Below are positions 55,901 through 58,900 of a stretch of 64,000 nucleotides of DNA, piece by piece. The stretch is from Octopus vulgaris (taxonomy: Eukaryota). The translations under genes and the position numbers were made by a program. The stretch covers positions 38,750,001 through 38,814,000 of the forward strand of contig OX597827.1 of the NCBI GenBank assembly GCA_951406725.2, given 5' to 3'. Within the stretch, counting starts at the first letter, position 1. The number at the start of each line of letters is the position of its first letter. Below the pieces are notes generated by a model that had not been told where the DNA came from, searched no databases, and saw only the letters and a list, made by a program, of their open reading frames with translations.

Positions 55901-58900
55901 TTTCAAGCAAGTCAAGAGTTTGAAGATATAATATCCAGACATGCAATTACTTCATTATTTACAGCTGTGGCTGGATCATCTGACAAGTTTTCTGTTCAGG
56001 TGGGGGTTTTGCTTTCTATCCCATCTTACAAAAAAAATCATTTAAATTGCCCCTGTTAAGGGGAGTTGCTACTGGTAATAATAAGACAAAAATGGTATAT
56101 TATATAGTGATTGTGTTTAAAATCTGGGCTAATGTATAAACTGGTAAAAATCCTTTCTTAGTAAATGTGTAAGTGATTGTAGCAACTTCTCTTAAATTAA
56201 ACTTCAGGGAAGATGGAGGATTAAGATTAAGAAATTATCCAATTGAGCTAAAGTTTTGTAATTGTTTTGGGAGGATATTTTGTAGTGTCTCTCTTTGACA
56301 AAAGTACACCTACTTGGGCTTTAATGAAGCAAATTTTCTCCCTTCTATAATTTTTATTTGTGACATTAATTAATTAGCTTGACAACTGGATTTAAATAGA
56401 TTCAGATTTCATTTTGGGTACGTGTAGAATATTTTTACAGTTTAAAACAAGATTGTTTCCTTTTTTTTAAAAAAACAATGTATTGTTTGATACTGGTAGA
56501 CTATTGTTTACTAGTGACTGTTAAAATAATGACTTTTCACTTGCAGAAAATTTGAAGTGTAAATTTGGTTTTTCTTCAATGTTTACTGAAACCAGCAGGT
56601 CTCGTAATAAATTCAGTTTTGCTGAACGAAATGTGCTTTTTGCTCGTCTCTATTAAAAATAGTTACCCCCTTCAGGCTTTGGATTTCCATCTGTAGTGTT
56701 CCTTTAATTACGAGTTTGGGGCTTTGACCCTTCCTATAGAAAATGTTAAAATTTGAATAAATGAGAATTTCAAGTTAATCAACTTGTATCCTTTAAACAA
56801 GTACTGGTTTTTAATTGGGCATTGGTGATGATATGGTCTTGCTAAAATGACGGGAGGGAGTGAACGGCTGCTGAGTTTTACTTTTAGTATGTATGTAGGA
56901 GACTTGATATTTTAACAGGACGGCAATTCACTGGTATGACACAAATGTGGTTGATTCACATTCTAAATCCTTATGGAATTTTAAACTTGCCAAGCAAGTT
57001 TATCCTTAACAAAAGATACATTTGAAGACCCTAGAGATGCTGATGATGCATTGTACCACCTTGATGCCAGTAACTTTTATGGGAAGAACCTACAGATAGA
57101 ATTTGCAAGAGGAGACAGAAAAAGTAAGTATGACTTATTTCATTGTTTTCTGATATGCAATATTATATTTAACTATATTATTTTTAGCCCAGGTCATTCC
57201 TGATCCAATGGACCTATGGTCAACTTGCTTCATCGTTTTCTAAGCTGCAAGCTGATATGCGATGTTATATTTACCTGTAGTTTTAGCCCAGGTCAGTCCT
57301 GATCCAATGGGCCTCTGGTCAAAGTTGTGATCAGCTCTTTTTTCGGACTGTGTACGCAGGACTACATTGTGAATGTGGCTTTTCATGCCTTTGCCTTTTT
57401 GTTAAACTGTAGGATGTGGTTTGGTTGCTATTTCTAACAAATCAGTCAACCAAAAAAACTCCATTTGTCTGACTGTTGTCTTGGACAAGGCACATAAAGC
57501 TATATAAATTCCAATTCTTTTCTCCAATGATACAAGCTCTGGTGTATTGGCTGTGACAAATTGTGCAATTGGTAATGCTTATAACAGATGTTCTTGCATC
57601 ACTGCTATGAATGGTGGTTACTGTGGGATTGCTAGTATGTAAGAGTTGTTGCAGTTGTATAACTGAAACTGGATGTAAATTTGTTTTTTTTTTAACTTTA
57701 GCACCATCACAAATGAGAAACAAAGAAAAAATGAGACGCAGTTCATTATCACCATATCGTAGTCGTTACTATGATGATTATTATGACAGACGAGGCAGCA
57801 GACGAGGTTACAGATCAAGAAGTAGGAGTCCAAGGTAAGTGAACTTAAAATGATAGAAAATGCCAACTATGGGAGGGAGAGGGTATATTTTTGTCAGGAC
57901 TGCTGTGAGGTTGAGGAAGTGTTTGAAACTTTTAATTGGAATTTGTGTGTGTGTGGGCCATTCTCTAATCTACCCTTAATTTCTTCTTACAGATCTCGTT
58001 CAAGGAGCCCTAATGGTGGCAGCACTAGGAAAAGGTAGGTATTGTAAGAATTTACTTATGAAGCAAAATGACTGAAGTTAACAAATTGTTTACTGATCTC
58101 ATTGTCAACAGTTTAGATTATTACTCATGTCATGGTTTCTGTGCAAGCCGTTTCATAAATAGTGATGATGATAATAATCTGCTCCTACTTAGGATTCATA
58201 ATCTTGGTCATATGAATAAACTATCCTAGCATGGAAAATGTAAAATAGTAAAAAGATGGTAATCAGTTTCTTTTTCAACGAGGGATTGGTGGTGGTGATA
58301 ATGGTGTAAAGTTATTTGCTTATCAAAAAACTGACAGCTAGAGTTGAAGCTACTTCTGTGTATGAGATATGGGTTCTTCAAAGTAACTTTCTATTTCATG
58401 CAAGATTTGAATGAATAAATATATTTTTATGTATTGGCTGGTGAATTATCTTAATGTAGTTGGTGATAATGCTTCTCACTTCTAAATTTACTGAATTATT
58501 CTGCTTAAAATATTTTGTTTTTGTAGTCGACGTAGTCGAAGCAGATCTCCACGCAGACATAGGTAGGTTGTAATTTTATTCCTTTGGTCCTTTAGACCAC
58601 TGTAATAAATGCATTACTGTAATTAGCTCCTACCACTTTTGGGGTTGTGGTCAACCTATTCTCTTAGGTCATTTGGTTATCTCTAGGGAAGAAACCAGCT
58701 AAGTATATGACAAACATGTAATTTTAACCCTTTAATTACTCTATTTTTAGCCAAAAATACTGTTCCTCTTTGAATTAAGCTACATAATTAAGCTAATTAA
58801 TATTAAAATAATGGTTTAAATATGTAAAAGAAAAAAATCTGAAATTTTCAGCCTCAAAATTATCAAGTAGGATCTAAAATATGGAGTTATTTAAAATTTT

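Follow-up and report, generated by a model that had tools for sequence, protein, structure and literature searches.

A stop-codon exon inside the AT-AC intron of an octopus SRSF10-like gene, a likely counterpart of the mammalian SRSF10 autoregulatory exon

The window analysed here is a stretch of 64,000 nucleotides of Octopus vulgaris DNA. It holds an RRM gene that is SRSF10-like and continues into an RS region, as RS repeats in the translated frame indicate. Exon 1, exon 2, the common downstream exon (exon 4 below, after its mammalian equivalent) and the exon that follows together form an open frame (Table 1). Exon 4 matches a protein named Octopus vulgaris SRSF10-like at 97% identity, and the majority of the named proteins among 57 matches are molluscan SRSF10/12-like. 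No paralogue or processed copy was found in genome G000, where the locus count is one. An Atlas search with the gene returned generic RRM clusters only.

Table 1. Features of the SRSF10-like gene in the window and of the sites discussed in the text.
Feature	Position	Strand	Evidence or reading
Exon 1, coding part	43917..43981	+	Runs from ATG to GT donor at 43982; its end is the loose end found joined to exon 2 and exon X
Exon 2 (105 nt, RRM), productive option	54552..54656	+	U2 acceptor, U12 donor; RNA joints, open frame
Strong U12 donor ATATCCTTT of AT-AC intron 54657-57019	54657..54665	+	Joint 54656 to 57020; U11 pairing
Hybrid segment, U12 donor to U2 acceptor, predicted to be unspliceable as an intron	54657..55626	+	No exon 2 to exon X joint; depth
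GT donor GTAAAA of the earlier note	54796..54801	+	Not seen used in 8 runs
Pyrimidine tract and AG acceptor of exon X	55600..55626	+	80% pyrimidine; end of exon 1 joined here in X12, X19 and X20
Exon X, poison exon of 304 nt that carries the CAAG/[CT]AAAG cluster and corresponds to mammalian Srsf10 exon 3	55627..55930	+	RNA joints at both ends; cluster
In-frame stop TAA in exon X	55679..55681	+	Translation; lies 249 nt ahead of the X/exon-4 junction
Weak U12 donor ATATCCAGA of exon X	55931..55939	+	Starts second AT-AC intron 55931-57019, spliced or retained
Candidate exon of the earlier note (acceptors 56546, 56675)	56547..56785	+	Not seen as exon; no joint and no loose end in 8 runs
GTATCCTTT, lone strong U11-like site inside second AT-AC intron	56786..56794	+	No use seen; due to chance or a decoy
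U12 branch site TCCTTAAC and AC acceptor, common to both U12 donors	57003..57019	+	Motif; joints
Exon 4, common downstream exon, RRM second half	57020..57123	+	Joints; protein matches
Next exon, start of RS region	57702..57834	+	Control GT-AG junction 57123 to 57702 in 8/8 runs

Transcript evidence is provided by assembled contigs from 8 of 22 listed runs, five with organism label A and three with label B. Their records do not label any of them as RNA, and the kind of run was guessed from the spliced joints present in all eight. Because the runs are assembled contigs, rare splice forms are missed, and contig depth is a rough figure and a poor measure of isoform share. The AT-AC intron is real: the joint from 54656 to 57020, with AT..AC ends, is present in six of the eight runs. 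Its branch site occupies 57003-57010 and its AC 57018-57019. In X1 and X6, both from study P1, the intron-retained path 54657-57019 is the main assembly and carries no spliced joint; perhaps this is nuclear RNA. Out of the depth of junction and intron taken together, the minor intron contig makes up about 17-20% in X3, X9 and X13, and the corresponding share of the next intron is 2-3% (rough figures).

Exon X, a stop-codon exon that replaces exon 2, lies inside this intron. Its acceptor was predicted from a cluster of CAAG/[CT]AAAG words ahead of the examination of the RNA contigs. In three of the eight runs (X12, X19 and X20, from two studies and with two organism labels), exon 1 is spliced directly to exon X and exon 2 is skipped. 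The end of exon 1 joins at 55625/55627 in all three, and the joint is the same to the base in the two studies. At the other end, the joint from 55930 to 57020, again with AT..AC ends, was seen in one run (X19), and X12, X19 and X20 carry the second intron, 55931-57019, unspliced at deep coverage. These joints, like those of exon 1 to exon 2 and of exon 2 to exon 4, are direct observations, as are the retention of the second intron and the early stop. The exon 1-X joint went unseen in five of the eight runs and the X-exon 4 joint in seven; in the five runs with no visible exon X joint the whole intron is one contig, which is uninformative either way.

When exon X is chosen, part of the RRM is lost and the frame stops after 39 codons, at a position well beyond the 50-nt rule. 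Forms with exon X make up about 36-45% of exon-1 joints by contig depth in the three runs, a rough estimate. This abundance is high for a decay target and counts against the best explanation set out below. Since the abundant forms retain the second intron, being held in the nucleus may be as important for them as decay.

Both exon 2 and exon X start at a major acceptor and end at a minor donor, and they have the exon-1 donor, the branch site and the AC in common. The segment between them, 54657-55626, begins as a U12 intron and ends as a U2 intron, and therefore should not be removable, to judge from the JNK case, in which exons 6a and 6b are kept exclusive via a U12-U2 hybrid intron (Chang 2007, PMC1874599, in excerpt). 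No joint from exon 2 to exon X, and none from 54657-55626, was present in the contigs of the eight runs, which drop rare forms. Nor was a TCCTTAAC-type branch site found within the segment, beyond one-mismatch noise of the kind at 55487. In X12, X19 and X20 the segment has a depth of 1-18, compared with 116-178 in the adjoining exon X (rough values). By analogy with JNK, exon 2 and exon X are likely kept apart through incompatibility of the major and minor spliceosomes. The JNK/MAPK8-10 exons 6a and 6b likewise have U2 acceptors and U12 donors, with a hybrid segment (U12 donor, U2 acceptor) between them, and share the outer sites, an upstream U2 donor and a downstream U12 acceptor. The JNK exons differ in being both coding and 108 nt long, whereas in octopus, in a splicing-factor gene, exon 2 is paired with a poison exon of 304 nt to which it is unrelated.

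The SRSF10 module is already known in mammals. Mouse Srsf10, in the excerpts of Meinke 2020 (PMC7244321), has an upstream AT donor and a downstream GT donor coupled to exon 3, and exon 3 contains an enhancer bound by SRSF10, a poly(A) site and, some 356 nt in, a minor donor that is used rarely. The exon 3 event is cold-induced and in part an NMD target (Neumann 2020, PMC7726792, in excerpt). Exon X resembles mouse exon 3, so described, in lying in the same AT-AC intron of the same gene, in its U2 acceptor, in the minor 5' splice site at its end and in the non-productive isoform with a premature stop that results; a purine-rich enhancer of SRSF10 type is present as well, by sequence only. The wiring is different. 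According to the same excerpts, mouse exon 3 is entered from the downstream GT donor of an extended exon 2, and the transcript often ends at the exon 3 poly(A) site. In octopus, the contigs of the eight runs show no GT donor downstream in exon 2 coupled to the poison exon, and the exon-1 donor is used instead; exon X is spliced from its AT donor to the AC that exon 2 also uses, and the contigs gave no sign of a poly(A) end.

Orthologous introns provide further evidence. A pattern consisting of the exon-2 end and the AT donor yielded 88 metagenome loci, of which L066 is not SRSF10 and was left out. The remaining loci and the window form 56 distinct sets, 39 of them with a complete intron, in about 12 lineages whose tree is poorly resolved. 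A bivalve protein matches locus L031 with 96% identity and a gastropod protein matches L006 with 90%; L031, L006 and L070 aside, the loci belong to unassigned animals. The peptide of L070 is one that we take to be of vertebrate type. Its intron fits the landmarks of mouse exon 3, with a BsrGI site ending at +16 and a block of 362 nt compared with 356 nt.

About a dozen introns were used to pick the word CAAG/[CT]AAAG by eye, after which all introns were scored for it. In the window the cluster has 15 words in 300 nt, compared with 5.1 in shuffles, and none of 200 shuffles was as dense. The densest 300 nt beats 200 of 200 shuffles in 31 of the 39 complete introns (window included; 30 of the 38 others), and the eight introns with no significant cluster all belong to one clade. 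As a control, the antisense strand reached a level of 1 in 100 or fewer in 0 of 39 introns; of 30 upstream flanks, two came to 2 in 100 or fewer, with eight sets shorter than 400 nt left out. The match of the word to SRSF10 specificity is loose. The published motif AAAGACAAA, which a review (PMC8522700) lists together with AGAGAV, reaches a density in the block that is 2.4-22 times that of the remaining intron in 12 of 12 lineages, with block limits set by hand.

A YAG acceptor stands directly ahead of the cluster in 37 of the 39 introns, after tracts that are 50-85% pyrimidine and merely 50-60% in many loci. Within 20 nt after the cluster, RTATCC occurs in 5 of 12 lineages (window, L031, L006, L044 and L070), on a background of about 0.00025 per nt; a cluster-end U11 site is absent in the other seven. 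All five RTATCC sites pair with U11 more weakly than the exon-2 donor of the window. A cluster kept across introns, with weak U11 sites at its end that include that of L070, argues that exon X is the counterpart of the mammalian SRSF10 autoregulatory exon. In L031, L012, L027 and L008/L021/L038/L055, the AT donor is followed after 66-117 nt by the acceptor of the block, and the stretch between them has no good GT donor, so the block is likely reached from exon 1 in those lineages as well.

Several variations were noticed among the loci. In clade A (L049, L067, L022, L015, L061) and clade B (L003, L019, L062) the block ends in a conserved U1-type donor, GTAATT or GTAAGA, and has no U11 site, a pattern that suggests switching of donor type at the poison exon. 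The two clades look like paralogues in related hosts, and clade B loci (for instance L002, L003 and L019) have the branch site ACTTAAC, not CCTTAAC. The intron of L044 has AT-AG ends and a U12 branch site. In L040/L048 a second RRM exon was not found downstream, an RS-coding stretch lies within 2.6 kb, and the cluster is not significant.

Genome G000 contains five matches to U11 snRNA (C3, C15, C17, C18); the best two have the 5' end TAAAAGGG and a third has AAAAAGGG. Predicted pairing with the genome's U11 5' end amounts to -6.9 to -7.1 kcal/mol for the exon-2 donor, -6.5 for GTATCCTTT and -3.8 for the exon X donor.

The best explanation, with a probability of roughly 0.75, is that exon 1 is spliced either to exon 2 or to the stop exon X, the U12 donors of both sharing one AC; that the two choices are likely mutually exclusive by spliceosome incompatibility; and that exon X likely serves self-repression of SRSF10. 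SRSF10 on the CAAG/AAAG cluster would favour the exon X acceptor, giving negative feedback. U11 at the strong donor of exon 2 would shift the choice towards that exon, and because U11 bound there would define exon 2, the amount of minor spliceosome would set the balance. The exon X message may be lost by nonsense-mediated decay. Alternatively, the weak U12 donor may leave the second intron unspliced, so that the message would be held in the nucleus. The motif GTATCCTTT would most likely be a bystander in the second intron. The SRSF10 switch in octopus is likely ancient, self-limiting and common to vertebrates.

This motif, 860 bases downstream of exon X in the same minor intron, had been flagged in an earlier note on this DNA as the end of a candidate poison exon or as a minor-spliceosome sensor. 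The landmarks listed there are in place: the motif, acceptors ending at 56546 and 56675, GTAAAA preceded by AG at 54796, and the AT donor at 54657. The motif was put about 210 nt upstream of the branch site, and 209 nt separate it from TCCTTAAC. The earlier note was right about the kind of element, a poison exon with major acceptor and minor donor in the minor intron of an SRSF10-like gene, and wrong about place and wiring, since the real exon is not 56547/56676-56785 but exon X, entered from exon 1 and left through the U12 donor at 55931. The proposed route, from the GT donor at 54796 to an acceptor at 56547 or 56676 and then from GTATCCTTT to the AC, or else USSE-like activation of those acceptors, is very improbable. 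Its motifs exist, GTATCCTTT pairs well with U11, and mouse exon 3 also ends in a rarely used minor donor in the excerpts. However, the junctions 54795^56547, 54795^56676 and 56785^57020 were absent from the contigs of all eight runs, in which rare forms are lost, and there was no loose end either, including in the three runs with deep coverage of 55931-57019. All three organism B runs (X13, X19, X20), and none of the five organism A runs, have 54798 A>C, at +3 of the proposed GT donor, which then reads GTC. The candidate exon contains one CAAG/[CT]AAAG word, compared with 15 in exon X, and so no enhancer cluster. Local alignment of 56537-56796 to 54 orthologous introns, a set with no other cephalopod in it, gave a best z of about 3.5, from short AT-rich matches, none of them convincing. 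The USSE of SNRNP48 and RNPC3 (PMC5473595, PMC8329584) is a conserved pair of sites in tandem and activates an acceptor upstream of it. Like it, GTATCCTTT is a U11-type site unused as donor and downstream of possible U2 acceptors. Unlike it, GTATCCTTT is single, the one similar site (L006) is not above chance, the acceptors at 56546 and 56675 were unused in the eight runs, and the acceptor in use is 1160 nt away; lacking a tandem, and with no upstream acceptor seen to be activated, the motif does not qualify as a USSE. The nested, twintron-like arrangement fared no better. The prospero-type twintron (PMC8329584, in excerpt) also combines major and minor signals in one AT-AC intron, but in octopus no U2 intron wholly inside the U12 intron was seen, and the arrangement is staggered.

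A chance origin, which the earlier note had allowed for, agrees with the counts, by which the motif is marginally beyond chance in window and intron shuffles. The window has four matches to RTATCCTTT, one of them the true donor, where 2.14 are expected, and 21 shuffles in 100 have at least as many; among 2000 shuffles of the intron interior, 5.05% contain the perfect 9-mer and 11% RTATCCTT. No unusual RNA fold was found near 56786 (z 0.9). Thus GTATCCTTT is probably due to chance and possibly a U11 decoy. A functional decoy, added to the exon X model, would out-bind the exon X donor for U11/U12, slow removal of the second intron and keep exon X messages nuclear. It would be the stronger site (-6.5 vs -3.8), the second intron is often retained, and USSE-bound U11 causes nuclear retention according to excerpted sources. 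Among 39 introns, an internal RTATCCTT occurs only in the window (-234 from the AC) and in the mollusc-like L006 (-188), in both downstream of a weak cluster-end donor. Two observed sites nevertheless compare with 1.3 expected, the sequence upstream resembles that of L006 to no significant degree (p 0.05, 0.49 and 0.12 in three scorings, 3520 windows), the bivalve-like L031 is without a second site, and there is no tandem; such a decoy is unlikely. Control of exon X by another factor (another SR protein, TRA2 or temperature-dependent phosphorylation), and not by SRSF10 feedback or minor-spliceosome level, is quite unlikely. Purine-rich enhancers are common to several SR proteins, and the visibility of exon X differs strongly between runs. 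Cold induction of mammalian Srsf10 exon 3, in the excerpts, points the same way. Against this, the cluster resembles the published SRSF10 motif and occupies the same intron position as the mouse exon, whose autoregulatory role has been shown. Finally, splicing noise or assembly artefacts could mimic the exon X joints, which come from contigs only and from three of eight runs; this is hardly credible given joints identical to the base in two studies, canonical ends at either side, the high depth of the contigs and a cluster that is both conserved and specific to one strand.

Other sites of similar kind were noted. Perfect RTATCCTTT also occurs at 18668 (+), where the context looks AT-rich and non-coding, and at 17124 (-). 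An internal GTATCCTAG in L008, considered as a conserved site, is absent from its close relatives L021, L055 and L038 and was taken as chance. AATAAA at 56756, considered as a poly(A) signal, received no support, since contigs, which cannot show ends, run through it.

In the open-access literature searched, no invertebrate SRSF10 poison exon was found, nor use in molluscs, wiring by skipping of exon 2 or an enhancer block across animals; supplements, subscription papers and isoform annotations may hold the exon. The term SRSF10 is absent from the main text of PMC3564746, PMC4379411 and PMC6865273. An exon at work in octopus and an enhancer block in every sampled animal lineage suggest that the sequence has diverged past alignment while the logic was kept. 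The shared module argues for an old regulatory role of the SRSF10 minor intron. A wider proposal, tentative and given a little under even odds, is that the SRSF10 poison exon in the minor intron is a pan-animal autoregulatory module, with a mutually exclusive pair through major/minor incompatibility as the ancestral wiring and the mammalian competing-donor form derived from it; in octopus, the poison message may in addition be detained by a decoy, the second and stronger U11 site. In octopus, spliceosome incompatibility, known from JNK coding exons, would be used as an on/off switch. In mammals the minor/major switch of SRSF10 has been linked with the abundance of SR proteins as a whole and with temperature, and exon X supplies a defined junction for questions of tissue and temperature control in a cold-blooded animal.

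The intron downstream of exon 4 contains a short duplicated repeat-like element, at 57180-57320 and 57416-57454, and the stretch 57416-57454 has a match in an unrelated contig of low depth from X6.
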